This document shows, one piece after another, positions 7,340-25,504 of a stretch of 35,865 bases of DNA; the stretch's first letter is position 1, and every line of letters starts with the position of its first letter. Position numbers and translations under genes: made by a program. A model generated the notes under the pieces. That model had not been told where the DNA came from. It saw only the letters and a list, made by a program, of their open reading frames with translations, and ran no database searches. The DNA comes from Vulcanimicrobiota bacterium. Lineage in GTDB: Bacteria > Vulcanimicrobiota > Vulcanimicrobiia > Vulcanimicrobiales > Vulcanimicrobiaceae. Location of the stretch: contig JAFARW010000147.1 of the NCBI GenBank assembly GCA_019245275.1, positions 1 through 35,865 on the forward strand. The letters run 5' to 3'.

Positions 7340-8224
7340 TTAACGTTTTTTGACCCCCAACCGCCCCCGGCGCACCGAGACGCTGACGTTCCGTTTCGCA
7401 TGAAAGAGACCGGAGCGGCCGGCTTCGAGTGCACGCACGGCGCTCTCAATATGTTCGAAGTCGACATCGAGCAACTCACCGCTTTCATCGAGCGCCTCGC
7501 GCACGCGACGCCGGAGCGTGGCCCGTGGAGCATCGGCGAGCTCGTCCGCCACGATGTGTGCCGCGCGCGCGACCGCCCGATCCAGTCGCGGGAACGAAAG
7601 GCGCAACGTCGTCAACGCCTCGCGCACCGCGTTGCGTCGATAGCGTACATCTTCATTCGTCGGATCGAGCGCATACGGCAAACAGAGCATCTCGCAATAA
7701 TGGCGCAGCTCATCGTGAGTTCGGCGCAGCAGCGGACGATAAAGATCGATCCCGATCGCGAGTGGCCGACGAGCGGCAATTCCGGTTAAGCCGGCTGTGC
7801 CGGCCCCGCGGAAGAGCGCCATTAACACCGTTTCGGTTTGATCTTCAGCGGTATGACCCGTCGCAATAGCGGTCGCTTCGCGTTTTTCTGCGATCCGTTG
7901 CAGTGTCGCGTAACGTGCCGTGCGCATCGCGCCCTCGCCGCGCGGCACGGCGCTCAGCCTGACACTCGCTACCGGAAGCCCAAGCGCCGCGGCAACGTGG
8001 AGGACGACCGCTTCGTCCTGATCGGCCGAACGGCGTTGCCCATGGTTGATGTGGGCAATCGATAGGCGCCAACCTTGTTTGGTTGCGACAGCGTTCATCG
8101 CCGCGGCGAGCGCGACGCTGTCGGGGCCACCCGAGCAAGCGATGAGAATCGATTCTCCGTTTCGCAGCGTCGCATCGCGCACGAGGGCCGATTCGAGAGC
8201 GCGCTGCGGCTTAGCGCCGCGCAT
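7340..8224 (-). CDS. tilS: tRNA(Ile)-lysidine synthase TilS
   Basis: PP-loop ILIACSGGPDSVALA, then HINHGQRRSADQDE and the TilS-like remainder. The longest ORF starts at 8266; the ATG at 8224 (MRGAKPQ) reduces the overlap with smpB. Conserved tilS-hpt-ftsH order. Confidence 0.9.
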   Translation of the reverse strand: MRGAKPQRALESALVRDATLRNGESILIACSGGPDSVALAAAMNAVATKQGWRLSIAHINHGQRRSADQDEAVVLHVAAALGLPVASVRLSAVPRGEGAMRTARYATLQRIAEKREATAIATGHTAEDQTETVLMALFRGAGTAGLTGIAARRPLAIGIDLYRPLLRRTHDELRHYCEMLCLPYALDPTNEDVRYRRNAVREALTTLRLSFPRLDRAVARAAHIVADELADAPRATLRRRVREALDESGELLDVDFEHIESAVRALEAGRSGLFHAKRNVSVSVRRGRLGVKKR

Positions 8225-8696
8225 GTCGTGCCAGTTCTCTGCGCAGTTCGCGCTCCGCCGTCGCACGGCGCTTATCCCATAACTTCTTGCCGCGCGCGAG
8301 CCCGATCTCCACTTTTACCTTACCGCGCGTGAAGTAAAGGCGAAGCGGGACGAGCGTCAGGCCCTTTTCGGCTGTCCTCCCGCCGAGACGAAGGATCTGC
8401 GCGCGGTGCAACAGCAGCTTGCGTGGCCTCGCCGGATCGGGATTCGCAAAGCTTCCTTCCTTATACGGAGGCACGTGCATGCCGAGCAACCAGAGCTCGC
8501 CATCACGCACGCGCGCGTAGCTTTGCGCAAGGCTGACGCCGCCGGCCCGAATCGATTTGATCTCGGTGCCCGTCAGCACGATGCCCGCCTCAAGCGACTC
8601 GAGGATCTCGTATTCATATCGCGCGCGCCGATTATCGACCGCCGGGGACCGCGTTTGCGGCGTCTGGTCACCGCGCGACGCACGGCCCTTTGCCAT
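8211..8696 (-). CDS. smpB: SsrA-binding protein SmpB
   Basis: DNRRARYEYEILESLEAGIVLTGTEIKSIRAGGVSLAQSYARV ... RPRKLLLHRAQI ... LVPLRLYFTRGKVKVEIGLARGKK. The ATG at 8696 shares one nt with the upstream TAA (TAATG). The longer track ORF to 8837 overlaps the thioesterase gene. Confidence 0.93.
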   Translation of the reverse strand: MAKGRASRGDQTPQTRSPAVDNRRARYEYEILESLEAGIVLTGTEIKSIRAGGVSLAQSYARVRDGELWLLGMHVPPYKEGSFANPDPARPRKLLLHRAQILRLGGRTAEKGLTLVPLRLYFTRGKVKVEIGLARGKKLWDKRRATAERELRRELARHARR

Positions 8697-9130
8697 TACG
8701 TCCGCTCGAGTTTTCGAGCCAGGTCCGATGAAGGATCGATCGGGCCGCGCGAAACGAAGTGGCCCTCGCCTTCCGCAAGAACGCGTTTGTCCTCGCTCAC
8801 ACGCGCATAAAGGCCGAGAACGTTGCGGCGCATCCAACGCACTTCACCATAGATGTCGAGCTGCCGGCCGAGCGGAACCGGACCCCGAAAGCGCGTCCTC
8901 AGACTGGCGGTAACACCGCGAAACCCCGCCGCGCCTGCGGCATGCGCCATCGCTTCATCGAGCAACGCGATCACGATCCCGCCGTGTGCGACATCGCGCC
9001 AGCCTTGAAATTGAGGCTCGAGCGTCGTGTGACCGAGCACGCTCTGCGTTCCCGCGCGCTCGAAGTGCAAATGCAAACCGATCGCGTTATCCGCGCCGCA
9101 GGCAAAGCAATTCCCATCATCGATGGGCAC
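8696..9130 (-). CDS. PaaI/hotdog-fold thioesterase
   Basis: CFACGADNAIGLHLHF ... WRDVAHGGIVIALLDEAMAHA is typical of PaaI-type hotdog thioesterases. The GTG at 9130 lies 5 nt after the upstream stop; TTG 9145 is an alternative. Confidence 0.7.
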   Translation of the reverse strand: MPIDDGNCFACGADNAIGLHLHFERAGTQSVLGHTTLEPQFQGWRDVAHGGIVIALLDEAMAHAAGAAGFRGVTASLRTRFRGPVPLGRQLDIYGEVRWMRRNVLGLYARVSEDKRVLAEGEGHFVSRGPIDPSSDLARKLERT

Positions 9131-12765: not shown

Positions 12766-14061
12766 ATGCTTGACATTAATCTTATTCGTCGCGATCCCGA
12801 TCGCGTTCGGCGTTCGTGCGAGCGCCGCGGGATCGATCCGTCATCCGTCGATGAGATTCTTCGACTCGACGAACAGTACCGCTCGGCGCAAACGGCCGTG
12901 CAAACGCTGCTATCACAGAAAAACGCGCACTCAGCAACAATTGCTCGCGCTGATGACAAGGCGGAAGCAGCGAAGGCTCTGCGTCCGCAGCTCGATGACC
13001 TCGCCCAGCAGATCGCCGCCGCCGAGGAACGCGCCGAAATGATCTCACCGCAGCGCGCCGATTCGCCGCTGCGCGCCCTCCTGGAGAATCTGCCGAACAT
13101 CCTCGACTCCGCCGTGCCGGACGGAAAAACGGAAGAGGACAACGTTGAAGTGCGCCGAGTGGGGACGCCGCGCGCATTCGATTTTGAAGTCAAGCCGCAT
13201 TGGACCATCGGCGAGTCCCTCGGCATTCTTGATTTCGAGCGCGCAGCGAAGCTCGCCGGCAGTCGCTTTGGCATCCTCATTGGTGACGGCGCGCGGCTCT
13301 CGCGCGCACTGATCGACTTCTTTTTGGATCGAGCACGCGCGAAATCGTATGTCGAAGTCGTGCCGCCTTACTTGGTGACGCGCAGGACGATGTGGTCGAC
13401 AGGACAGTTGACGAAATTCTCGGATGCGATGTTTTGCGACCCGGAAGCAGACCTCTTCATGATCCCGACGTCTGAGGTGCCCTTGACGGCGCTTCACGGC
13501 GAGGAGATCTTGAGCATCGAAGATCTTCCGCGCAGATACGCCGCGTACTCGCCGTGCTTTCGCAAAGAAGCCGGCGCCGCAGGGAAAGATACGCGCGGCC
13601 TCATGCGCCAACACCAATTTGAGAAGGTTGAGCTCGTTTGGCTCACCGTGCCGGAGAGTTCCGGCGACGTGCTTGATTCACTGACGGCAGATGCCGAAGC
13701 GTTGTTAAGTGAACTCGAACTTTCGCATCGCGTCGTGGCATTGTGCGCGGGCGAGATCGGCTTCAACAGCGCGAAGACGTATGACGTCGAGGTTTGGATT
13801 CCGAGCGAAGGGCGCTACCGCGAAATCAGCTCATGCTCGAACTGCACCGACTTCCAAGCGCGCCGCGCGGACATCCGGTTTCGGCGCGACCCGAAAAAAA
13901 AGCCGGAATTCGTGCACACGCTGAACGGCTCGGGACTCGCTGTCGGACGTACGTTAATCGCAATCCTCGAGAACTATCAACAAGCGGACGGCAGCATTAC
14001 GATACCGCTCGCGCTGCGATCCTACTTCAACGGCGAGAAGATCGAGCGCTCAAGTACTTGA
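12766..14061 (+). CDS. serS: Seryl-tRNA synthetase
   Basis: MLDINLIRRDPDRV N-terminus, coiled-coil arm, class II motifs (FRKEAGAAGKDTRGLMRQHQFEKVE, GSGLAVGRTLIAILENYQ). ATG at 12766. Confidence 0.95.
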   Translation: MLDINLIRRDPDRVRRSCERRGIDPSSVDEILRLDEQYRSAQTAVQTLLSQKNAHSATIARADDKAEAAKALRPQLDDLAQQIAAAEERAEMISPQRADSPLRALLENLPNILDSAVPDGKTEEDNVEVRRVGTPRAFDFEVKPHWTIGESLGILDFERAAKLAGSRFGILIGDGARLSRALIDFFLDRARAKSYVEVVPPYLVTRRTMWSTGQLTKFSDAMFCDPEADLFMIPTSEVPLTALHGEEILSIEDLPRRYAAYSPCFRKEAGAAGKDTRGLMRQHQFEKVELVWLTVPESSGDVLDSLTADAEALLSELELSHRVVALCAGEIGFNSAKTYDVEVWIPSEGRYREISSCSNCTDFQARRADIRFRRDPKKKPEFVHTLNGSGLAVGRTLIAILENYQQADGSITIPLALRSYFNGEKIERSST

Positions 14062-14712
14062 GGTCGGTTCGGTGACCGAAACAGAATGCACGCCCGGCGC
14101 GGAGGCGAGCCGTTCGGCCATCGTGCGTACGTTGATGCCGCGACGCATCTGCACTCGGTAAGTCGCTTCCGTGACGTGCCCCGCACCCACCGCGCTCACC
14201 TTATAGTCTCCCTCGAGAATGTAACGCTCACCGTCGCCGGCTAACACGTTTGCGATCCCGGCTCGCGCCTGATCGTCATACGTGATGCTCACCAGTGTCT
14301 TGGACGCGAAGTATCGATCGATAGCAACATCTGAAATCGAGAGCACGATCACGGTCAGAATCGTGACGCTGATTCCGATCGTCAATGACTGCGGGCTTCC
14401 CTGGGCAATCGCGACGCCCACCGCCGCCGTACTCCAGATGCTGGCGGCAGTCGTCAAACCGTGCGCGGTTAGCCCCGATCGAAAGATCGCGCCGGCACCG
14501 ATAAAGCCGATGCCGGTGAGAACGTTGGCAGCGATGCGCGTGTCCCCGGTCAAGATGCCGATCTGAGCAAAGGCACAGCATCCGAGCGCAACGAGCAAAT
14601 GCGTGCGAAAGCCGGCGGGCTTCTGTGCCGCCTGCCGCTGCAATCCGACCGCGCCGCCGCATAATGCCGCAATCAAGAGCTGGGCGACCTCCGCCCCGGT
14701 GAACCAAGTCAT
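14050..14712 (-). CDS. MgtC/SapB family membrane protein
   Basis: LLIAALCGGAVGLQRQAAQKPAGFRTHLLVALGCCAF followed by further TM helices and a soluble C-terminal domain. The 3' end overlaps the serS 3' end by 12 nt (convergent). Confidence 0.85.
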   Translation of the reverse strand: MTWFTGAEVAQLLIAALCGGAVGLQRQAAQKPAGFRTHLLVALGCCAFAQIGILTGDTRIAANVLTGIGFIGAGAIFRSGLTAHGLTTAASIWSTAAVGVAIAQGSPQSLTIGISVTILTVIVLSISDVAIDRYFASKTLVSITYDDQARAGIANVLAGDGERYILEGDYKVSAVGAGHVTEATYRVQMRRGINVRTMAERLASAPGVHSVSVTEPTSST

Positions 14713-14755: not shown

Positions 14756-15424
14756 TTACTTTTGCTTGGGTAGTTCTTTGAACGATTGCTTTACGCGGTA
14801 TTCGCTCATCGGGTAGCGCGAGCGCAGGTTTTCCCATTGGTCGAGCAGGTCGTTGCTCAGCGGATCTTTCCGGTACCCCGTGACGCCGAGATAGTAGAGC
14901 GCTTCGGGAGCCGCGTACGTCGTTGAAAAACGCGTGAGAACATCTGCATACAGCTTTTCGGCCGCTTCAAATTCGCGCCGGCGCAGGTGGGCTTGCGCGA
15001 ATCCGCACAGTGCACGCGCGATAAACTCCGGCGGCGGCAAGAAGCCATCCCAGCGGTAGAGTTCCGCGCCGCTATCGTCCATGATTCGGATGTCAGGCGT
15101 CCAGATATGGTACATGCGTTTGAGGATCTCGACGTTTTCCTTCTTTGAATTGTCGTACTGAACGGGAATCGCATTGTCGGCGATGACTCTTATGACCGGC
15201 GGCTGTGGATACGTCACGGTATCCAGTGCTTGGCAGCCCCCTCAACCCGGGTTGAAGACGTCAACCAGAACAAATTTCGATTCTTGCCGAGCCTGCCGCT
15301 GCGCTGCATCCAAGTCGTGCATCCACTCAATCATGTGAACTCTCTTTCCCATCAGATCCACATGCCCATCGGCACCATGCTCCCTGTCAGTCTGAGCTTG
15401 TCGAAGACCATCTGGATGATCCAT
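14756..15424 (-). CDS. Thioredoxin-fold protein with TPR-like C-terminus; in-frame TGA (15244-15242) read as selenocysteine in a U-G-G-C motif
   Basis: Track ORFs 15242..15424 and 14756..15217 share one frame, separated only by one TGA plus 8 sense codons. Joined product: ...IEWMHDLDAAQRQARQESKFVLVDVFNPG-U-GGCQALDTVTYPQPPVIRVIADNAIPVQYD... A SECIS-like hairpin follows the TGA. The start is uncertain (ATG 15424, 15352 or 15334). Confidence 0.6.
15198..15241 (-). promoter_or_regulatory. Candidate bacterial SECIS element
   Basis: RNA immediately 3' of the UGA is GGGGGCUG-CCAAGCAC-UGGAUAC-CGUGAC-GUAUCCA-CAGCCGCC. Lower stem is 7 of 8 bp. An 8-nt 5' bulge follows. Upper stem is 7 perfect bp (15219-15225 with 15206-15212). 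The 6-nt apical loop contains GU and lies 24-29 nt after the UGA. Confidence 0.5.
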
Positions 15425-15469
15425 TCGGCGGATACCGCCGCCAGAAATGGTGCGCTACACTCTAAGCGT

Positions 15470-16651
15470 ATGCTTACTCGGTTCGGCGCGGCGCTCATTG
15501 CCACTCTGGCCGCGGTGAGTTTGCGACTCCCAGCGCTCGCCCAAGCTCCGTCGCCTTCGCCAACCGCGTCAACGGCGCCGAGCCCGTCACCGAGCCCCTC
15601 CCCAACTCCGACACCGCCGCTGATCCTCGGTGGAAGCTTTACGATCTTCGGCGTTCACACGAACGGCGTGAACAACACCGGCGCTCTCGACACGACGGCA
15701 GGCGCCGATCGCGCAGGTCGTTCGGACATCTCGGAGCTCTTGCTGAACGTTTCAGCCGGCGACGCGCGATTTCGAGTCACGGCGAGCGCCGGCGTCTACA
15801 ACCTGCTCACAGTTGGGACTGCGATCAACCCAACGTCGCAAACCGCCGCAAATACGCTGCTTTATTCGCAGCTGCCCGTGGCAGCCGCGCAATACAACTT
15901 CAACAGCCACTTCAGTCTGGCGGCTGGAAAATTCGCATCGCTCCTCGGTCAAGAATCGCCCTTCACCTACCAGAATATCAATGTGCAGCGCGGCCTCGCT
16001 TGGGCGATCGAGCCGACAATCAGCCGTGGCGTGCGGGCGATTTACACGAACGGTCCTTGGAACGCAACGGTTGAGGCGAACGATGCCTACTACTCAGGGC
16101 GCAACCGCGCAATCGAGTGGCTTCTGGGCTACGCGCCCAACGCAAACACGAACATTCAGTTCGCTGGGATCGTTCCGGGCGTAAACGTCGGGCCGAACCC
16201 GACGGTCACCGTCGGCAACAAAGCCGAGTACGACCTGATGCTGACGCAACAGGTCGGCAAGTTGCAGCTGCTCCCATACATCTTGTGGGTTCACTCACCC
16301 GCGTCTGCTCCGCTCGGATACACGCGCGATGAGAATGCGACGGCGGCCGTGTTGATGGGAACCTACACTTGGAGCTCGCCATTTTCGCTCGCTTTTCGCT
16401 GGGAGAGCGTTTGGAACAACAGTTCGACGGGCGACGCAAGCGGTAATGCGGACCTTGTTGGTTACGGGCCCGGCAGTTCAGCGCGCTCAATCACGCTGAC
16501 GCCGACGTATCACTTCGTCGGCTACGGCGTCCTGCGGCTCGAGTATTCACACGTTTGGATTTCATCATTTACGCCCGGCCTCGGTTTTGAAATTGGCGGA
16601 ACCGGCAGCAATCAGGATCGATTCGGCTTTGAATTGGGAGTCGTTCACTGA
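15470..16651 (+). CDS. Putative outer-membrane beta-barrel porin with Pro/Ser/Thr-rich N-terminal linker
   Basis: Signal peptide MLTRFGAALIATLAAVSLRLPALAQA, then linker PSPSPTASTAPSPSPSPSPTPTPP. Many alternating-hydrophobic strands follow, with aromatic girdle residues. The first 80 codons of track ORF 15230.. overlap the opposite-strand gene. Confidence 0.55.
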   Translation: MLTRFGAALIATLAAVSLRLPALAQAPSPSPTASTAPSPSPSPSPTPTPPLILGGSFTIFGVHTNGVNNTGALDTTAGADRAGRSDISELLLNVSAGDARFRVTASAGVYNLLTVGTAINPTSQTAANTLLYSQLPVAAAQYNFNSHFSLAAGKFASLLGQESPFTYQNINVQRGLAWAIEPTISRGVRAIYTNGPWNATVEANDAYYSGRNRAIEWLLGYAPNANTNIQFAGIVPGVNVGPNPTVTVGNKAEYDLMLTQQVGKLQLLPYILWVHSPASAPLGYTRDENATAAVLMGTYTWSSPFSLAFRWESVWNNSSTGDASGNADLVGYGPGSSARSITLTPTYHFVGYGVLRLEYSHVWISSFTPGLGFEIGGTGSNQDRFGFELGVVH

Positions 16652-16737
16652 TGCTGCTCGAGATCGCGATCGTGCTTGGCTCTCTTCTCTGTTTCGCGCT
16701 TCTTTACTATTACATCCGCGGCTGCGAGAAGATCTGA
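16651..16737 (+). CDS. 28-aa hydrophobic micro-ORF between the porin gene and kdpF
   Basis: MLLEIAIVLGSLLCFALLYYYIRGCEKI. The ATG overlaps the porin TGA (TGATG), and the stop lies 4 nt before the kdpF ATG. Single TM-like helix. Below the ORF-track size cutoff. Confidence 0.4.
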   Translation: MLLEIAIVLGSLLCFALLYYYIRGCEKI

Positions 16738-16741
16738 CGCG

Positions 16742-16831
16742 ATGAAGTTTGACGATATTCTCGGTTTGGTTTTGACGCTCGCCGGCATGGCGTATCTGCT
16801 CTACGCGATGTTGCGGCCGGAGAGGTTCTAA
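16742..16831 (+). CDS. kdpF: K+-transporting ATPase subunit F
   Basis: 29 aa MKFDDILGLVLTLAGMAYLLYAMLRPERF. It carries the characteristic KdpF C-terminal LLYAxLRPExF and lies 3 nt upstream of the kdpA GTG. Confidence 0.85.
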   Translation: MKFDDILGLVLTLAGMAYLLYAMLRPERF

Positions 16832-16834
16832 GAA

Positions 16835-18538
16835 GTGACGCTGATTGGCTGGATCCAAGCGGTCGTTCTGTTCCTCGCGGTTCTGGTCTTCGTCAAACCG
16901 CTGGGCGGCTTTATGGCTCGCGTCTTCAACGGCGAGCGCAACTTCTTATCGCCAATCCTCCGACCGGTCGAGCGCGCGATTTACCGTCTCGGCGGAATAA
17001 ACGAAGACGAAGAGATGGCGTGGTACACCTATCTTTTCGCCGTCCTCGCATTCTCGTTCGTCGGGTTAGCGTGGCTCTATCTCCTGCTCCGCACGCAACA
17101 ATGGCTGCCGCTCAATCCGCAGCGTTTCGCAGCGATGTCGCCCGACCTCGCCTGGAACACCGCCGTCAGTTTTATGACGAACACGAACTGGCAGTTTTAT
17201 TCGGGCGAAAGCACGGTCAGCTACTTCAGTCAGATGGCCGGCTTGGCGTGGCACAATTTTGTTTCCGCTGCGGCCGGCATCGCACTCGCAATCGCGCTGA
17301 TTCGCGGCATCGCGCGCACGACGCTCAAAACCCTTGGCAACTTTTGGGTCGACCTAACGCGCGCGTGCCTTTACATCCTATTACCGATCTCAATAGTCGG
17401 CTGTCTGATCCTTGTCATGCAAGGCGTGCCGCAGAACTTCCATTCATACGAGACGGCCAAATCTGTGCAAGGATTCTCGCAGCAGATCACCGGCGGCCCG
17501 ATGGCATCCCAAGAAGTGATCAAGGAGCTCGGCACTAACGGCGGCGGGTTCGTTAATGCAAACTCAGCATCGCCAAACGAGAATCCAACGCCGTTCTCCG
17601 ACTTCTTCGAGCTGTGGCTGATTCTAGCGATCGGTGCCGCGCTCACGTACACGTACGGCAAGATGGTCAAAGACACGCGGCAAGGCTGGGCCCTCTTTAT
17701 TGCGATGTCGATCTTGTTTTTCGGCGGCTTGCTCGTCGTTTATTGGGCTGAAGCGGCCGGCAATCCGGCAATTCACCAGCTTGGCATCGCGGGCGCAAAC
17801 ATGGAAGGCAAAGAGGTCCGGTTCGGCCTGGCTGCGTCAACGTTATGGGCCAATACGACCACGGCGACTTCCTGCGGCGCCGTCAATGCAATGCATGATT
17901 CATTCACAGCACTTGGCGGGCTAATTCCGCTCGTCAACATGCAGTTAGGCGAAATCATCTTCGGCGGCGTCGGCAGCGGGCTGTACGCGAAGCTGATGTT
18001 TGTCGTTCTTACCGTTTTCATCGCCGGACTCATGGTCGGCCGCACTCCGGAATTTCTCGGCAAGAAGATCGAACGCCGCGAAGTTACGTTCGCGATCCTC
18101 TCGATCTTGATAACGCCCCTTCTCGTCCTCGTTCCGACTGCCGTCGCGGTGTTGATACCTAGCGGCCTCGCGACGCTCGGCAACACCGGCCCGCACGGAT
18201 TCTCCGAGATTCTCTACGCATTCACGTCGACGAACGCGAACAATGGGAGCGCATTTGCGGGACTCGGTCCGAACCTCTTTTACAATCTGACGACCGGCGC
18301 AAATATGCTCTTCGGAAGATTTGCAGAGGTCATTCCGGTCTTGGCACTTGCCGGCGCGCTGGCCGGCAAAAAAGCGGCCCCTGAAAGCGCGGGCACGTTC
18401 ACCACTTACTCGCCGATCTTTGTGGGATTGCTGATCGGCACGATATTGATCGTCGGAGCACTGACGTTTTTGCCGGCCGATGCTCTTGGTCCGATTGTGG
18501 AACATCTGCTCAATCTCAAGGGAAGCACTTTCCAATGA
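16835..18538 (+). CDS. kdpA: K+-transporting ATPase subunit A
   Basis: 567 aa polytopic protein with KdpA hallmarks ([40 protein letters not shown]). Confidence 0.97.
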
Positions 18539-20592
18539 TTCCGCAACGCCGCATCGACCGCCGTCCAAAAGCGAGCTCCCTCTTCGATCGGGCGATTGTC
18601 GGGCGCGCGATTCTCGACTCATTCAAAAAACTCGATCCGCGCTGGCAGATTCGCAATCCGGTCATGTTCATCGTGGAGATCGGCTCTGTCGTAACGACCG
18701 GTTTCTTCATCCGCGACATCTCCTCGCACACCGGCCACGCCGGCTTCGATTTCGCGATCGCCGCGTGGCTCTGGTTTACAGTTCTCTTTGCAAACTTCGC
18801 AGAAGCCGTCGCTGAAGGTCGCGGCAAAGCGCAAGCCGATTACTTGCGTCGCACGAAAGCCGAGACGATCGCCAAGAAACTGGATGAAGCCGGCACCGTG
18901 ACGCGCGTTTCGTCGGCATTGCTGCGTGCAGGCGACCTCGTGCAAGTGGATGCCGGTGAGTTGATTCCGGCCGACGGTGATGTGATCAAGGGCGCCGCGA
19001 CCGTCGATGAATCTGCGATCACCGGCGAGTCCGCGCCCGTCATCCGAGAAGCCGGCGGCGATCGCAGCGCCGTAACGGGCGGAACGCGAGTTCTTTCGGA
19101 CCACATCACCGTGCGTGTGAGCGCGGACCCGGGAGAAAGCTTCCTCGACCGCATGATCGCACTCGTTGAAGGCGCGCAGCGGCAAAAGACGCCCAATGAA
19201 ATTGCACTTACGATCCTGCTCGCTGGGTTAACGATCATCTTCTTAATCGCCGTGGCGACCCTCGCACCGTTCTCGCTCTATGCCGGCACGCGACAATCCC
19301 TGGTCGTTCTGATTGCGCTTCTCGTGTGCCTGATCCCGACGACGATCGGAGGTTTGCTTTCCGCAATTGGAATCGCCGGCATGGATCGCGTCATGCAGCG
19401 CAACGTGCTCGCAATGAGCGGACGAGCAGTTGAAGCGGCGGGCGATGTTGACACCTTGCTGCTCGACAAGACCGGCACGATCACGCTCGGCAACCGGCAA
19501 GCGGTCGAGATTCTGCCGGCGCCCGGCATCGATGCACAAGACGCAACGCAGATCGCTTATCTCTCATCGTTGCCGGACGAAACGCCCGAAGGTCGCTCGA
19601 TCGTCGCGCTTGCGCAGCGCGCGGGATTGAGCGGAGACGCTGCGCTGCCGGAAGGTGCGACATTCGTCCCGTTCAGCGCGTACACGCGCATGAGCGGCGT
19701 CGATATGAACGGCCCACAGATTCGCAAGGGCGCGCCGGATGCAATCCTCAACTGGGTCCGCGAGCAGGGCGGATCACCGAGCACGGATCTCTCGGGTGAA
19801 GTCGAGCGAATCGCACGAAGCGGTGGAACGCCGCTCTTGCTCGCCCGCAACCAAATGGTTGTCGGCGTGATCCACCTCAAAGATATCCTCAAGCCGAACA
19901 TGATCGCGCGCTTCGATCGGCTGCGAGCAATGGGCATTCGCACAGTCATGATCACAGGCGACAATCCGCTGACCGCAGCTGCGATCGCCAAGGAATCCGG
20001 CATCGACGATTTTCTCGCCGAGGCAACGCCGGAAACAAAAATGGACCTGATCAAGCGCGAGCAGGGTTCGGGGCGGCTCGTTGCGATGACCGGCGACGGC
20101 ACAAACGATGCGCCTGCGCTAGCGCAAGCTGACGTCGGCGTGGCGATGAATTCGGGAACGCAGGCGGCCAAAGAAGCCGCTAACATGGTCGATCTCGATT
20201 CGGATCCGACCAAGTTAATCGAAGTCGTCGAGATCGGCAAGCAGTTGCTGATGACCCGCGGCTCGCTGACGACCTTCTCCATCGCGAACGACGTTGCGAA
20301 GTACTTTGCTATTCTGCCGGCAATGTTCGCGACCGCTTACCCGGTCATGAACGTCCTGAACATCATGCGCCTTACGACACCGCAGAGCGCAATTCTATCA
20401 GCCGTTATCTTCAACGCGCTTATCATCATCGCGCTGATTCCGCTCGCGTTGCGCGGCGTCGCCTATCGTCCGCGTGGCGCTAGCGCGGTGTTGCGTGAGA
20501 ACGTCTTGGTCTACGGCGTCGGCGGAATCATTGCGCCATTCATCGGCATCAAATTGATCGACATCATCCTCAGCCTTCTCCATCTGACGTAA
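18535..20592 (+). CDS. kdpB: K+-transporting P-type ATPase subunit B
   Basis: 685 aa with DKTGTIT phosphorylation site, TGES, MITGDN and [14 protein letters not shown] overlap with kdpA. Confidence 0.97.
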
Positions 20593-20597
20593 GCAAT

Positions 20598-21170
20598 ATG
20601 ATCAAACATCTTGGTATCTCGCTGCGCTTAACGATCCTGACCGTGATCGTACTCGGTCTGATGTACCCCTTTGCAATGACCGGCATCGCGCAACTGATCT
20701 TTCCGAAGCAAGCCAACGGCTCGCTCGTGAGTGTGAACGGTAACATCGTCGCCTCCGACATCATCGGCCAACTTTGGACGAAGCCGCAATACTTTCACGG
20801 CCGTCCCTCGGCCGCCGGTAAGAACGGCTACGATCCGACGTCAACCGGCGGCACGAACCTCGGACCGACATCGAAGAAGCTAATCAGCACGACCAAGACG
20901 ACGATCGCTCAATTACGTAAAGAGAATCCGGACGCGAGCGGTCCGCCGCCGATGGACCTAGTTACGTCAAGCGCAAGCGGCATCGATCCGGACATCAGTC
21001 CGGAAGGCGCCTACTACCAGGCCGCGCGGGTTGCGAAAGCGCGCGGCCTAGCCGTCGCACGCGTCAATACACTGATCGCCCAACATACCAAAGGCCGCAC
21101 GTTGGGCTTTTTGGGTGAGCCGCGGGTTAATGTTACCGAGCTGAATCTAGCGCTGCAAAATCTCCGTTAG
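20598..21170 (+). CDS. kdpC: K+-transporting ATPase subunit C
   Basis: 190 aa with an N-terminal TM helix. GSSLV-like GSLVS, FHGRPSA, TSSASGIDPDISPEGA and VTELNLAL are typical of KdpC. Confidence 0.93.
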   Translation: MIKHLGISLRLTILTVIVLGLMYPFAMTGIAQLIFPKQANGSLVSVNGNIVASDIIGQLWTKPQYFHGRPSAAGKNGYDPTSTGGTNLGPTSKKLISTTKTTIAQLRKENPDASGPPPMDLVTSSASGIDPDISPEGAYYQAARVAKARGLAVARVNTLIAQHTKGRTLGFLGEPRVNVTELNLALQNLR

Positions 21171-21176
21171 AACGCC

Positions 21177-23282
21177 TCACTCGCCACGCCGCGTCAGTAC
21201 GAGTACCTCCCGCGCGCCCGCATCGAGAACGCGCCGAGCGAATGCATTGCGCTGAGGCCATCGCGGATGGCGTAAGGTTGTAGCCATCGCAACGACCGTC
21301 TCAGGCTCCATGCGTGCAAGCTCAATGATGCGCCGGGGAGCGTCGTGCGTCATCTCTTGATGCCACGTAGCATGGTTCTTCTCAGTTTCGAGCCGTAGTC
21401 GCTCGGTCAGCTCGTCGCTCGGTCTGTCGCGCGGCTCGGTAATCATCGCAACTGCCAAGCGCACGCCCATGCGCGCCGCGATCTGACTGCAGCGCCGGAC
21501 CAGCGCGACATCTTCGTTACGCGGACCTGCACATAGCAACAATTGCTCAAACGGCGCGTGCGGACGCTTGCGAATGCGCGCGCGTAGTGCTTCGCGCAAG
21601 GCGAGTTCGCGCAGCGCGGTCAGATTGTCGAGCGTGAAGAAATTCGCCAGCGCGCGTTCGATGCGCTCGGGAGGGTAGATCTTGCCCTCACGCAGACGCG
21701 CACGCAACGTCTGCGGCGTGACGTCGATCAAGATTACTTCATTTGCGATCGCGAGGATACCGTCCGGAAGTGTTTCACGCACGACCGTCTGCGTTAATCG
21801 AAATACGGTGTCGTTGAGCGCTTCGAGATGCTGGATGTTCAAGGTTGTGATCACGTCGATTCCGGCGCGCAAGATCGCTAGCACGTCTTCATACCGTTTT
21901 TGAAACGCTGAGCCGGGCGCGTTCGTGTGTGCGAGTTCATCGATCAGCACGACCTGCGGATGGCGTTCAATCACGGCATCGCGATCGAGTTCTTCATATC
22001 GGACGCCGTCCTTAACGATCACCTCACGAGGCAAGACTTCTATCCCCTCGATGAGTGCAGCGGTCTCGGCGCGACCGTGCGTTTCGATGAATCCGGCGAT
22101 GACATCGATGCCTTCTCCTTTGAGCTGATGTGCACGATCGAGCATTGCATAAGTCTTGCCGCTGCCTGCAACCGACCCAAGGTAAACCGTTAACCGGCCG
22201 TAGCCGCTCGCTGCTTCACCGTCGGATTGCGGCGCGCCGAGCACATCTGAGGCCGGCGGGACACCGAGATAAACCTGCGATGGATCGATCACCAGAATGT
22301 CACGATCTTGATGGCGGTTGACGATGTGGCGTGCGGCCTTACCGTTCGGCAAGACGATCAAACTCGCGCGAAGCGCTGAAACATCCATCGTAAGCGGATC
22401 GAGCGGTTCGCTCAAAATCTCGGCGCCGACACGCACGGCAACTTCGTCGAGCAAGGAGCGCTCAACATTGCCGGCGGGACGAATCTCGAGGCGTAGATCC
22501 AAAGCGCCTGCAACCGCCGCGGCACGTTCGACATAAGAGTCGACGGGAATATCGGCGGGCACGAAGACGACTGCGGTCGAGACCCGCTCGGCGGAGACGT
22601 TCGGTTGCGTGACGTGGTCGACGGCATGTAAGAGCAATTCGCGCAGCGCGTACAGCGTGCGATCTGAGAAGACGCCTTGGAGCGCCGCATCAACATCCGT
22701 ATCTGAGACGATCTTGCCGGAGCGCAAGCGACTCTGCACAAGTTGCGGCGAAACGTCGAAGGCGACGACCTCATCGGCGCTTTCCAGAAAGCGATCCGGA
22801 ACGATCGCGCGCAGCGCGTGGCCGGTCAAGCGTTCGGCAGCCGGAGCGACGCTCTCAAGATGTGCGATATTGAAAGCGCATAAAACCGAAATTCCAGCGT
22901 CGCGTAAAGCGAGCGCTTCTTCCCAACGCATCGCATATCGCGAACCCGGCAGATTTGCATGCGCGACCTCGTCCAGCGCGATTACCTGCGGCCTACGAGC
23001 CAGCGCCGCTTCAAAGTCAAACTCCAAGAAATTGCGTCCATTGCGCACGACCTCACGCGGCGGAATGCGCGGCAAACCCTCCGCGAGCCGCTCGAGATCC
23101 GCACGACCTTTTGTTTCGATCCAACCGATTATGGCGTCGCGTCCGAGCGAGCGCAGCCGGTGCAACTCTAAGAGAAGGCGGCGCGTCTTTCCGCTGCCGG
23201 GCGCGGCGGAGAGGTAGACGACGAGCCGCGGCCGCTCGCCGTATTCGGCCAGCAGCTGCTCGACACTCGGGCGTGGCGGCAT
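21177..23282 (-). CDS. Soluble protein made of two tandem KdpD N-terminal sensor (KdpD_N + Usp-like) modules; no TM or kinase domains
   Basis: Module 1 (aa ~17-340): VVYLSAAPGSGKTRR...IGWIETKGRAD...ALDEVAHANLPGSRY...LCAFNIAHLES. Module 2 (aa ~362-701): TVYLGSVAGSGKTYAM...AGFIETHGRAET...LIDELAHTNAPGSAFQKRYEDV...TTLNIQHLEALND...LTALRELALREA. Each is followed by a Usp-like segment. Confidence 0.85.
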   Translation of the reverse strand: MPPRPSVEQLLAEYGERPRLVVYLSAAPGSGKTRRLLLELHRLRSLGRDAIIGWIETKGRADLERLAEGLPRIPPREVVRNGRNFLEFDFEAALARRPQVIALDEVAHANLPGSRYAMRWEEALALRDAGISVLCAFNIAHLESVAPAAERLTGHALRAIVPDRFLESADEVVAFDVSPQLVQSRLRSGKIVSDTDVDAALQGVFSDRTLYALRELLLHAVDHVTQPNVSAERVSTAVVFVPADIPVDSYVERAAAVAGALDLRLEIRPAGNVERSLLDEVAVRVGAEILSEPLDPLTMDVSALRASLIVLPNGKAARHIVNRHQDRDILVIDPSQVYLGVPPASDVLGAPQSDGEAASGYGRLTVYLGSVAGSGKTYAMLDRAHQLKGEGIDVIAGFIETHGRAETAALIEGIEVLPREVIVKDGVRYEELDRDAVIERHPQVVLIDELAHTNAPGSAFQKRYEDVLAILRAGIDVITTLNIQHLEALNDTVFRLTQTVVRETLPDGILAIANEVILIDVTPQTLRARLREGKIYPPERIERALANFFTLDNLTALRELALREALRARIRKRPHAPFEQLLLCAGPRNEDVALVRRCSQIAARMGVRLAVAMITEPRDRPSDELTERLRLETEKNHATWHQEMTHDAPRRIIELARMEPETVVAMATTLRHPRWPQRNAFARRVLDAGAREVLVLTRRGE

Positions 23283-23308
23283 CCTCCCGCCATTTTACCA
23301 GGGAGGAT

Positions 23309-24880
23309 GTGCGGCGTCTGGAACGGCTTTTGTGGATGCTGCCGCTGGCTTGTTACGCGCTGCTCTTGGCGGCTTGGATCCTCGACCTTTTTACGCCGCA
23401 GCTCTTCATCGCCGCAATCCTCTTCAACATTCCAATCGCGCTCAGCAGCCTCGCGATGAGGCGCAACCTAACGATTTCGCTGGTCGTTGCGTCTGAGGTC
23501 GCAAACATCATTGCCGGATACGTCAATGCCTTGCAAGCGCATCACTTCGATGTTGTTGCGTTCGGCGATCGAGCGCTGCTTGCAGCGTCGTTCCTACTGA
23601 TCGGCTACATGACGATCAAAACGCAGCAACTCGGCCATACTGCGGGCCTCTCAGACGCTCGCGCCGAGCAGGCGCAACGCGAGCGGCGGTTGCGTATTGC
23701 GCTCGACCACGTACGGGAGAGCTTGAGCACCGAGCTCGTTTTGCGTGCGATCGTTCGTGAGGCCATCGCACTCTCAAACGCGCAGTCCGGAATGTTGCTT
23801 GTCGAAGCCCCGTCGAGCGATGCGCCGGAGCGTTACGTCGGTGAGTCTGCGACGCGCGAGATTCGAGTCGAACGATCGCCTCTCGGGGCGGAAGTCCGCT
23901 CGATCTTGGCGCGCGAAATGGACGGTCCGGTTGTCTTACGGGCTGACGGCACGGATACAATCGCGCGTTACGCCCTCGAATCGCTGCCCGCACGTGAAGC
24001 GCTCATTACACCGCTTCGCATGGACTCGCGTGATCTTCGGCTCCTCCTGACATCACAGCAGACCAAGTGGGCGCGTGACGATGCGCGGCTCCTGCGATCC
24101 TATGCGGAGCAGTGTGAGACTGCCCTCGCGCAATCGGATCTGTTCGTGCGAACGAGCGAACAAGCCGAGCAGATCGTTGACCAGCACGAAGCGCTCGTCG
24201 AGCGCAGCAACGTCATCCGCGATCTCGTTTACGCGCTTGCGCACGATTTACGTACGCCACTCGCCGCTGCGGATGCAACAATGCAGCAGGCGCTGCGCGG
24301 AGCCTACGGGGCGTTGCCCGATGCGTATCGCGATGTGCTTTCGACGAGCCTGCGTTCGAACGAAGAACTTCAAAGGATGGTCGAGACACTGCTGCTCGTC
24401 GCCCGCTACGAATCGGGAGAGGCATCCGCGCGGCGCGAGCGCGTCGACCTGGCGCAAGTCGCTCGTGAAGCCGTCGCCGAGATGGAATCCTCGGCTCTGG
24501 AACGCGATGTCCGCGTATGCTTTGAAGCAACTCCCACTGTCGTGCTCGCGGATCCGGATGAGCTGCGGCGCGCGCTCCTCAACCTGCTTGTAAATGCGAT
24601 CGCCGCATCGCCGCCGGGGTCGCAAATCGCGGTCACGGTCGGCAATGATACGGATGCCGCATTTGCCTCCATCGAAGACGAAGGCTTAGGAATCGCGCCT
24701 GAAGATCGCGTGCGACTCTTTCAACGCTTTGGCGTCACGACACGCAAACGCGGTGCCGGAACGGGCCTGGGACTCTACATCGTGCGACTGATTGCAGAGA
24801 AGCACGGCGGCAAGGCGATTTACGAACCGAAGGAGATTGGAAGCCGCTTTGCCATCCGTCTCCCACTGGCGAGTTCATAA
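23309..24880 (+). CDS. Membrane sensor histidine kinase (4 TM - GAF-like - HisKA - HATPase_c), resembling the C-terminal half of KdpD
   Basis: TM region WMLPLACYALLLAAWILDLF...IPIALSSLAM...LLAASFLLIGYMTI. H-box VYALAHDLRTPLAA, N-box LLNLLVNAIAAS, G-boxes EDEGLGIAPED and GAGTGLGLYIV. In-frame GTG at 23309 or ATG at 23333. The first 118 codons of the track ORF overlap the divergent gene. Confidence 0.85.
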   Translation: MRRLERLLWMLPLACYALLLAAWILDLFTPQLFIAAILFNIPIALSSLAMRRNLTISLVVASEVANIIAGYVNALQAHHFDVVAFGDRALLAASFLLIGYMTIKTQQLGHTAGLSDARAEQAQRERRLRIALDHVRESLSTELVLRAIVREAIALSNAQSGMLLVEAPSSDAPERYVGESATREIRVERSPLGAEVRSILAREMDGPVVLRADGTDTIARYALESLPAREALITPLRMDSRDLRLLLTSQQTKWARDDARLLRSYAEQCETALAQSDLFVRTSEQAEQIVDQHEALVERSNVIRDLVYALAHDLRTPLAAADATMQQALRGAYGALPDAYRDVLSTSLRSNEELQRMVETLLLVARYESGEASARRERVDLAQVAREAVAEMESSALERDVRVCFEATPTVVLADPDELRRALLNLLVNAIAASPPGSQIAVTVGNDTDAAFASIEDEGLGIAPEDRVRLFQRFGVTTRKRGAGTGLGLYIVRLIAEKHGGKAIYEPKEIGSRFAIRLPLASS

Positions 24881-25504
24881 ATGCGCGCCGTCATCATCGA
24901 GGATCATGCGTTGACGCGAACCGGCTTGCGTACCGCGCTCACTGCCGCCGGCGTCGAAGTTGCCGGTGAAGCAGCGGATGGAGTGAGCGCGATGGCGACC
25001 ATCGAGCACCTACTGCCGGACGTGGCGGTCGTCGATATCGGCTTGCCTGGCCGCGACGGCATCGAATTGACGCACCTGATTCGCAAGCAGTCGCCGCAAA
25101 CGCGCGTCGTCATCGTCACGATGATCGATCTCGAAGAAGAAGTGATTGCCGCGCTTGCCGCCGGTGCAGACGCCTACTGTCTGAAGACCGCCTCGGCGGA
25201 TCGTATTGCTGAAGCCGTGCGCATCGCGGCCGAAGGCGGCGCATATTTCGATCCGGCGATCGCGCACGTCGTCCTGCGCCGTTTTGCACCGAACGCTGCG
25301 CAACCATCGGCATCGCCCTTGACGCCGCGCGAAACGGAAATACTCGAACGAATCGCTGCGGGAGTCGGCAACGCGGACATCGCTAAAGAGCTGGCAATCG
25401 GCCTGGGGACCGTCAAAGGACACGTGCGCAGCATTCTGGAGAAACTTTCAGCCGCCGACCGCACGCAGGCGGCAGTCGTCGCTCTGCGCCGCGGCTATAT
25501 ATAG
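24881..25504 (+). CDS. NarL/FixJ-family response regulator (REC + LuxR-type HTH)
   Basis: MRAVIIEDHALTR...DVAVVDIGLPGRDG receiver domain. C-terminal LTPRETEILERIAAGVGNADIAKELAIGLGTVKGHVRSILEKL. The ATG directly abuts the kinase TAA. Confidence 0.9.
   Translation: MRAVIIEDHALTRTGLRTALTAAGVEVAGEAADGVSAMATIEHLLPDVAVVDIGLPGRDGIELTHLIRKQSPQTRVVIVTMIDLEEEVIAALAAGADAYCLKTASADRIAEAVRIAAEGGAYFDPAIAHVVLRRFAPNAAQPSASPLTPRETEILERIAAGVGNADIAKELAIGLGTVKGHVRSILEKLSAADRTQAAVVALRRGYI

Follow-up and report, generated by a model that had tools for sequence, protein, structure and literature searches.

An in-frame TGA in a minus-strand gene

The DNA analysed here is a 35,865-nt stretch of Vulcanimicrobiota origin (approximately 60% G+C), hereafter the window, whose minus strand carries a gene interrupted by a single in-frame TGA codon. 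This TGA almost certainly encodes selenocysteine (Sec, U). Very probably, the segment 15334-14756 (-) is one gene for a cytoplasmic UxxC selenoprotein of 192 residues, which combines a thioredoxin (Trx) domain with a tetratricopeptide repeat (TPR) domain and is decoded through a selenocysteine insertion sequence (SECIS).

A first-pass annotation, made from the letters of the stretch, had placed two open reading frames (ORFs), 15424-15242 and 15217-14756 (-), in one frame, and translation confirmed that they share it and that only TGA 15244-15242 and eight sense codons lie between them. Translated through the TGA, the frame reads ...KFVLVDVFNPG-U-GGCQALDTVTYPQPP... or, with a longer upstream stretch, MIEWMHDLDAAQRQARQESKFVLVDVFNPG-U-GGCQALDTVTYPQPP.... 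From ATG 15334 to TAA 14756 (-) it encodes 192 aa, the TGA being its sole interruption (Table 1). The joined product had previously been given as 222 aa, a length that we revise to 192 aa from ATG 15334 because the 30 upstream codons (15424-15335) are not conserved, other loci showing stops or unrelated sequence there; because the closest relative, locus L001, has a stop two codons ahead of MIEW; and because, on the identical contig, a gene caller placed a 30-aa ORF beginning at MIEW. The stretch 15335-15424 is probably a non-coding 5' leader. The only public contig with an identical protein is 3.4 kb long.

Table 1. Features of the proposed selenoprotein gene, in window coordinates (CDS, coding sequence; dS, synonymous substitution rate; bSECIS, bacterial SECIS).
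Feature	Position	Strand	Basis
Complete selenoprotein CDS (very probable), 192 aa, Sec at residue 31	14756..15334	-	ATG 15334-15332, stop TAA 14758-14756; translation across the TGA, homology over residues 1-190
In-frame TGA as selenocysteine U31 (almost certain), first residue of U-G-G-C	15242..15244	-	Conservation and alignment with the first Cys of CxxC
TGC codon, Cys34, presumed resolving Cys of UxxC	15233..15235	-	Cys in 81/81 loci
Upstream part of the first-pass ORF (MDHPDGL...KRVH), probably 5' untranslated leader	15335..15424	-	Not conserved
Spacer from UGA to hairpin (17 nt) and, ahead of the UGA, the GGT codon; nearly frozen at synonymous sites	15225..15247	-	Codon counts, dS
SECIS core hairpin: 5' arm GGAUAC 15224-15219, apical loop CGUGAC 15218-15213, 3' arm GUAUCC 15212-15207	15207..15224	-	Conserved; agrees with the bSECIS model
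Outer stem of the first-pass annotation, 15241-15234 with 15205-15198, enclosing the core hairpin	15198..15241	-	Present in the window, not conserved
Thioredoxin-fold domain, residues 1-105, including the W78-T79-P80 cis-proline loop at 15103-15095	15020..15334	-	Pfam Thioredoxin_7, P80 invariance, homologue model
C-terminal all-helical TPR-like domain, residues 106-192	14759..15019	-	YbgF/CpoB profile matches, helices in homologue model

Conservation of the TGA and selection around it

Two sets of sequences were compared with the gene. The genome set comprised 80 loci from GTDB species genomes which, together with the window, gave 81 sequences, and the metagenome set comprised 80 more loci obtained in a single scan of JGI metagenomes with a family alignment, at 34-41% identity to the Cys-form query. 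The TGA stands at the same codon in 81 of 81 Eremiobacterota-type loci, inside the almost invariant context FNPG-U-GGCQALD. Among the metagenome loci, 79 of 80 have a stop at the site and one (L131) has TGC; 78 of the 79 parsed loci were identified as TGA by script, while L159 was read by eye as a stop, its codon itself being unchecked. Four extra distant loci added three cases of TGA and one of TGT (L084). Moreover, the TGA is kept across subfamilies with differing motifs, namely NPG-U-GGC, SPV-U-GGC, VPT-U-TGC, AAPM-U-GGC, and NNL-U-IGC.

Homology runs through the stop, since tblastn aligned query residues 1, 2 or 4 to approximately 190 in 80 of 80 genome loci. Furthermore, with U written as C, the Pfam models Thioredoxin_7 (PF13899; residues 3-85) and Thioredoxin_2 (PF13098) both match across the TGA, with 39.9 and 30.7 bits, respectively, against a cut-off of 27 for each. 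Codons -26 to -2 relative to the TGA gave a ratio of nonsynonymous to synonymous substitution rates (dN/dS) of 0.19 in the frame of the gene (dS 1.45), compared with 1.43 and 1.61 for the same nucleotides in the other two frames, and codons +12 to +60 gave 0.29 (dS 1.49). The low in-frame ratio upstream thus indicates that translation before and after the TGA uses a single frame. Continuity of homology past the stop, which the first-pass annotation had named as a check, is therefore borne out by the tblastn alignments, the Thioredoxin_7 match and the upstream dN/dS.

TGA is the ordinary stop codon of 12 of the 26 other, Pfam-supported genes in the window, so a genome-wide reassignment of TGA can be dismissed. 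A scan of all loci for other conserved in-frame TGAs returned this gene only, the other clusters being off-frame translations.

The Eremiobacterota-type gene was also observed, at 61-65% identity and in the same FNPG-U-GGC context, in four metagenome-assembled genomes (MAGs) labelled Acidiferrales or Acidoferrum (Acidobacteriota; loci L046, L048, L067, and L079), a distribution that could reflect mis-binning or horizontal transfer.

Truncated database entries and cysteine homologues

A search of 5.8 billion proteins retrieved 373 relatives, the best 120 of which are all 143-156 aa long. The 29 that were aligned start at a GTG or ATG that lies eight codons past the TGA or as many as three codons before that point; they originate from Eremiobacterota MAGs (Baltobacteraceae, Cybelea) and bear names such as 'tetratricopeptide repeat protein', 'TolA-binding protein' or 'hypothetical'. 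Gene callers thus systematically truncate this gene, as had been anticipated in the first-pass annotation, and the relatives are deposited as 143-156-aa proteins starting after the TGA.

When the 153-aa ORF was searched against 1.84 billion cluster representatives, distant relatives (27-45% identity) of two kinds emerged: forms of approximately 150 aa, again truncated, and full-length forms of approximately 190-200 aa. The full-length forms carry CGGC, CSGC, CNGC, CRGC or similar motifs exactly at the U-G-G-C of the window (19 of 22 in alignment A3). Cys34 is invariant in the 81 loci and nearly invariant in alignment A3, which holds 23 full-length family members. One cluster at 90% identity contains a Sec/Cys pair, with TGA in L081 and TGT in L084. 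Taken together, the aligned CxxC of the full-length homologues and this TGA/TGT pair uphold the earlier proposal that the TGA occupies the first Cys position of a thioredoxin-fold CxxC. One relative was called with Trp at the TGA, and its locus fails to translate to the query under table 11. In the samples taken, Sec forms vastly outnumber Cys forms, approximately 160 to 2 at the DNA level.

In a separate subgroup of alignment A4 (P0291-P0296 and P0216, one of them labelled Planctomycetota), GPG-KGS replaces U/CxxC, so that both redox residues are gone, and the remaining fold and the TPR domain are kept.

A hairpin 3' of the UGA

Directly 3' of the UGA, the RNA of the window can form the structure drawn in the first-pass annotation, which consists of an outer helix GGGGGCUG/CAGCCGCC, an 8-nt bulge, a 7-bp stem UGGAUAC/GUAUCCA and a loop CGUGAC at +24 to +29. 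In this stem, an extra U-A pair (15225/15206) lengthens the 6-bp core hairpin. The published bSECIS model specifies a loop of 3-9 nt, a stem of 4-16 bp, a G as one of the first two nucleotides of the loop, a distance between UGA and loop of 16-37 nt and a minimum free energy at or below -7.5 kcal/mol (PMC13188914). With a loop of 6 nt, G at position 2, a stem of 6-7 bp, a distance of 23 nt from the UGA and a minimum free energy of -8.3 kcal/mol (-15.4 for 45 nt), the hairpin of the window agrees with the model on every count, so that the geometry claimed for it earlier stands.

The elements of the drawn structure differ in their conservation. The core GGAUAC/GUAUCC is paired in every cell of the 81 loci, from which RNAalifold recovers it, and the first-pass drawing is sustained to this extent; the seventh pair, U-A in the window, is of a standard kind (U-A or U-G) in no more than 36 of the 81. 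The outer stem was rejected as a conserved feature: 64.8% of its cells are paired in the 81 loci, it shows no covariation, and RNAfold uses five of its eight pairs in the window.

The core was further assessed in 102 distinct sequences with the same hairpin (type 1), where 612 of 612 cells are paired, a count to be read with the caveat that these sequences were chosen by a pattern in which the loop and three of the 3'-arm bases are fixed. One core pair changes from A-U to G-C in 6 of the 102 sequences and to G-U in 2, and another is G-U in place of A-U in 23; none of 500 shuffles reached the observed counts. Moreover, codons +7 to +11 (GAT ACC GTG ACG TAT) exhibit zero synonymous variation in the 81 loci. 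The lack of synonymous variation and the compensatory changes indicate that the core hairpin is under selection at the RNA level. Because the hairpin lies inside the CDS, the peptide motif (D/G)(T/A)VTYP is fixed by the RNA.

An identical type-1 hairpin persists in subfamilies at 30-40% protein identity, and further subfamilies have hairpins of other sequence at the corresponding site (Table 2). All types have a small apical loop with a G in its first two positions and a stem that begins 11-18 nt after the UGA, placing the first loop nucleotide approximately 17-23 nt after it. Conservation of the hairpin in orthologous loci, another check that had been suggested at the outset, is thus documented by frozen synonymous sites and compensatory changes.

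Table 2. Hairpin types 3' of the UGA across the family.
Hairpin (5' arm-loop-3' arm)	Forms or loci	Number
GGAUAC-CGUGAC-GUAUCC (type 1)	Forms with ...TVTYP, some in lineages at 30-40% identity	102 distinct sequences
CUCGGC-UGGAU-GCCGAG or CUCGGCU-GGA-AGCCGAG	AAPM-U-xxCARL(D/E)AEVYP	31 loci
AACAGCU-GGC-AGCUGUU	NNL-U-IGCQQLAAVTYP	20 loci
AACGGC-UGGAC-GCCGUU	L130	1 locus
AGAGCU-GGAC-AGCUCU	L088	1 locus

The freeze of synonymous sites reaches beyond the hairpin (window 15225-15255; alignment A2 columns 8-38). Synonymous codon entropy in the 81 loci is 0.9-2 bits in the flanks and drops sharply over the codons from the one preceding the UGA to +11, and dS over codons +1 to +11 is 0.35, as against approximately 1.45 in the flanks. 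The codon before the UGA is GGT in 76 of 77 Gly cases, and GGG, GGA, TGC, CAA, GCG, and CTG after the UGA are nearly fixed. Two alternative pairings involve this region. A UCAAC/GUUGA mini-hairpin containing the UGA is 99% paired with one compensatory change, and a GGGGAUGC/GUAUCCUC pairing, which competes for the 3' arm of the SECIS, is 90% paired, although it is interrupted in the window and missing from other subfamilies. Both are compatible with the Eremiobacterota sequences but lack covariation support.

Fold and domains of the protein

Homology and modelling assign the N-terminal domain to the Thioredoxin_7/DsbD-gamma type and the C-terminal domain to the CpoB/YbgF-like TPR type, the latter being what appears in databases under the names 'TPR protein' or 'TolA-binding protein'. 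Alignments A1, A3, and A4 all keep the cis-Pro P80 of the WTP loop without exception, and the protein has no signal peptide. In profile comparisons, DsbD-gamma was matched at approximately 1e-12 and the YbgF/CpoB TPR domain at 3.3e-11 (2xev) and 1.6e-10 (6g5s); BamD was also matched.

The structure model is an AlphaFold2 prediction for the Cys-form homologue P0290 and stands in for the protein of the window. It shows, with a predicted local distance difference test score (pLDDT) of 95.6 and a predicted template modelling score (pTM) of 0.90, a thioredoxin fold followed by a helical domain. CGGC (residues 38-41) comes after strand 1 and opens helix 1 (39-48), its first Cys being the equivalent of U31, and the six helices of the TPR-like domain span residues 106-195. 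When the whole model was compared with the PDB by Foldseek, the first match was E. coli YbbN/CnoX (3qou, 3qdn), at a template modelling (TM) score of 0.41, a root-mean-square deviation (rmsd) of 11-12 Å and 14-15% identity. The best match of the Trx domain was DsbD-gamma (TM 0.7 on the target, 25-27% identity).

Decoding of the UGA and alternative explanations

From the anatomy of the locus and the known bacterial mechanism, the hairpin GGAUAC-CGUGAC-GUAUCC, located 17 nt 3' of UGA codon 31, would be bound by SelB carrying Sec-tRNA(Sec), with the consequence that the UGA would be read as selenocysteine and not as a stop. In the resulting protein, U31-G-G-C34 would lie at the N-terminus of helix 1, facing the invariant cis-Pro loop W78-T79-P80. 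Fold and motif suggest that U31 acts as the attacking nucleophile and C34 as the resolving residue of a selenenylsulfide/selenol-thiol couple, and the fold of the TPR domain suggests that it recruits a protein partner or substrate.

A number of observations weigh against this proposal. Neither the window nor 60 loci contain a tRNA-Sec recognized by ARAGORN; tblastn with E. coli SelA, SelB, and SelD sequences found none of them in 0.99 Mb of loci; and Pfam scans of 30 window ORFs revealed no sel genes. This negative result carries little weight, since the loci are small neighbourhoods of the same gene. At the level of the RNA, folding z-scores in the window are modest (-2.5 for the 24-nt hairpin, -0.3 for a 66-nt stretch), approximately 7-8% of arbitrary positions or UGA triplets in the window precede an equally good hairpin by bSECIS rules, and Rfam yielded nothing, either for the whole window at gathering thresholds or for 15120-15320 with E values up to 10. 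Three distant Cys-form loci present a mixed picture, one being without a hairpin, one having a decayed hairpin without the loop G and one having a bSECIS-like hairpin. The biochemical role, which we infer from fold and motif, is not supported by genomic context, no conserved neighbour being common to more than 11 loci. Finally, we found no paper that makes a relevant connection between selenocysteine and Eremiobacterota, Vulcanimicrobiota or WPS-2. As the window hairpin is unremarkable by itself, the case rests on comparison with other sequences. The coincidence of TGA and hairpin, on which the first-pass annotation had relied, is consequently weak in the single sequence and gains its weight from conservation.

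It is on this comparison that the alternatives part from Sec decoding. A single sequence could not distinguish the gene from a decayed pseudogene in which a chance nonsense mutation has hit a thioredoxin-like gene, the hairpin alone being within chance expectation; the recurrence of the same TGA in 81/81 and 79/80 independent loci, down to approximately 30% protein identity, together with strong purifying selection on either side of it, makes such decay practically negligible as an explanation, and identities of 60-85% among the loci exclude copies of one assembly artefact. It is also extremely unlikely that the locus yields two products, a 30-aa peptide ending at the UGA and, after a restart at the loop GUG (15217), a 153-aa 'TPR protein', even though gene callers start at that GTG/ATG or at most three codons earlier in nearly all type-1 loci and the GUG is invariant in the type-1 hairpin. 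That invariance follows from the position of the GUG in the SECIS loop (CGUGAC, 15213-15218), and other subfamilies have GTC, GTA or GAG there with called starts elsewhere, so that no restart codon is conserved; besides, the 153-aa form would lack both strand 1 of the Trx fold and the helix carrying its active site, and the Cys homologues are single chains.

Sec decoding has also to be set against read-through of the UGA without Sec, by near-cognate insertion of Trp or Cys or through a local recoding signal, with the hairpin stimulating read-through instead of binding SelB. Sec machinery was not found in the loci searched, and a synonymous freeze that reaches 5' to the UGA would fit a context-dependent signal too. 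We nevertheless regard this explanation as very unlikely: the site is the catalytic Cys of CxxC, a position at which bacterial selenoproteins regularly exchange Sec and Cys, a Trp there would abolish the redox centre, TGA ends other genes of the window in the usual way, and all subfamilies keep a small G-containing apical loop whose first nucleotide stands approximately 17-23 nt after the UGA, inside the 16-37 nt of the model, which is SelB-type geometry.

Genomic context

The gene order in the window is MoeA, SerRS, MgtC, the selenoprotein gene, a BBP2 porin, kdpFABC, and KdpD-like genes, among others. The MgtC-family gene (14050-14712) follows downstream of the selenoprotein gene after 43 nt and shares 12 nt with the end of serS on the opposite strand. 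None of the 80 related genome loci, the closest (L001) included, carries an MgtC homologue at this position or elsewhere, and the MgtC gene therefore looks like a recent insertion. The MoeA, SerRS, porin, and kdp neighbours are common only to L001. The context put forward in the first-pass annotation, with MgtC on one side and porin-kdp on the other, is thus real as to the 43-nt spacing and incidental otherwise. A neighbour with a PCC domain, apparent in 64 loci, was rejected as an artefact of antisense ORFs overlapping the gene, a real PCC gene being present in 3 loci. Since no neighbour is shared by more than 11 loci, the gene is stand-alone and its context is silent on function.

Several further features of the window were recorded. 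An ORF for a BBP2/OmpL-like beta-barrel porin (Pfam 5e-39) stands directly upstream of a kdpF-like ORF (16676-16831) and of kdpA, kdpB, and kdpC on the same strand (region 15230-21170), and the porin and kdp genes could form one operon. ORF 21177-23282 (-), of 701 aa, contains two segments that match the N-terminal sensor domain of KdpD (PF02702, 2.3e-148) without kinase domains, and the other strand carries a HisKA/HATPase ORF (22955-24880, +) and a LuxR-type response regulator (24881-25504, +); kdpD beside kdpABC is an unusual split or duplicated arrangement. Finally, smpB is located at 8211-8837, and a transfer-messenger RNA gene was not found in the 35.9-kb window by ARAGORN or Rfam.

Relationship to known selenoproteins and thioredoxin-fold proteins

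The family is large, with Sec as its dominant state; it occurs in Eremiobacterota, Fimbriimonadales-like bacteria, and MAGs labelled Binatia and Acidoferrales, and soil and sediment metagenomes commonly contain it. The family appears not to have been catalogued and to occur in lineages where Sec use is undescribed. No model of NCBIfam (release 20) reaches its cut-off for the window protein, its Cys homologues or four other subfamilies, and the nearest, at roughly a tenth of their cut-offs or less, are the TsoB/DsbD C-terminal domain, the VPGUxxT families and a Trx7/PDZ family. Of the 119 prokaryotic selenoprotein families tabulated in a 2026 review (PMC13188914), none is recognisable as a Trx7-plus-TPR protein, and the main texts of the BSepDB and deep-Sep papers mention neither the family nor the phylum.

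Hundreds of database entries hold the 3' three-quarters of the gene under names such as 'tetratricopeptide repeat protein', with no NCBIfam model to rescue them. If the reading of the UGA as Sec is confirmed, Eremiobacterota and several other soil lineages use selenocysteine, and the predominance of Sec over Cys forms renders the family well suited to studying the advantage of Sec over Cys. The identical 18-nt SECIS at 30-40% protein identity, together with the replaced hairpins elsewhere, constitutes a natural data set on SelB-SECIS recognition, and the family provides an example of an RNA element fixing a peptide motif, (D/G)(T/A)VTYP. A more ambitious picture, speculative and probably not correct in all its parts, is that of an uncatalogued, soil-abundant Trx7 plus CpoB-like TPR selenoprotein family with Sec as the default, representing the first Sec decoding in Eremiobacterota (Vulcanimicrobiota); its members would act as an Se-dependent CnoX-like redox chaperone or as a targeted reductase whose TPR chooses the client, and the wide frozen RNA segment with its competing pairing would perhaps tune Sec insertion versus termination.

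Trx-fold UxxC proteins are the commonest class of selenoproteins. The members of this class, such as Sec-thioredoxin, Sec-glutaredoxin, and DsbA-like and thiol-disulfide isomerase-like proteins (PMC13188914), share with the protein described here Sec instead of the first Cys of CxxC where helix 1 begins, the existence of Cys homologues, and a SECIS hairpin inside the CDS just 3' of the UGA; they differ from it in that the present family has two domains (Trx7 and CpoB-like TPR), dominant Sec forms, and hosts among soil Eremiobacterota and relatives. The 'Thiol:disulfide interchange protein' family (PF13098, WP_011366075.1) likewise has UxxC, and the window protein passes PF13098; compared by description only, that family has anaerobic Deltaproteobacteria (Geobacter/Syntrophus) as its listed hosts, with no TPR mentioned (PMC13188914, PMC1794560).

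The VPGUxxT proteins (NF041382/NF041383) resemble the window protein in their Thioredoxin_7-like N-terminal domain, in PG-U and in a weak profile similarity over the first 90-100 residues. They have UxxT where UxxC is found here, profile lengths of 287 and 349 aa and other C-terminal domains, and the scores fall far below their cut-offs (32 bits against 275 for the window; overall 20-42 bits against 275 and 350). The Trx7/PDZ family NF041199 has CxxU, the motif here being UxxC, and scored 11.6 bits against 300, with no PDZ match. The closest solved Trx domain is that of DsbD gamma (NF001419; 1uc7, 2fwe), to which the rhodanese-DsbD fusion selenoprotein TsoB (NF045694) is allied in this comparison. 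Only the C-terminal Trx domain of these profiles was matched (28.8 bits against 330 and 26.3 against 805); unlike them, the window protein has neither a membrane domain nor a signal peptide, and the TsoB motif is listed as UxxxxU.

E. coli CnoX has an SxxC motif and acts as a holdase. As a chaperedoxin, CnoX/YbbN (3qou, 3qdn) combines an N-terminal thioredoxin domain with a following TPR region in a soluble cytoplasmic protein, the same order as in the present family, and it is the top Foldseek match of the whole model. At a TM score of 0.41, an rmsd above 11 Å and 14-15% identity, the arrangement of the domains differs from that of CnoX, and the likeness between the two proteins would be one of architecture only.

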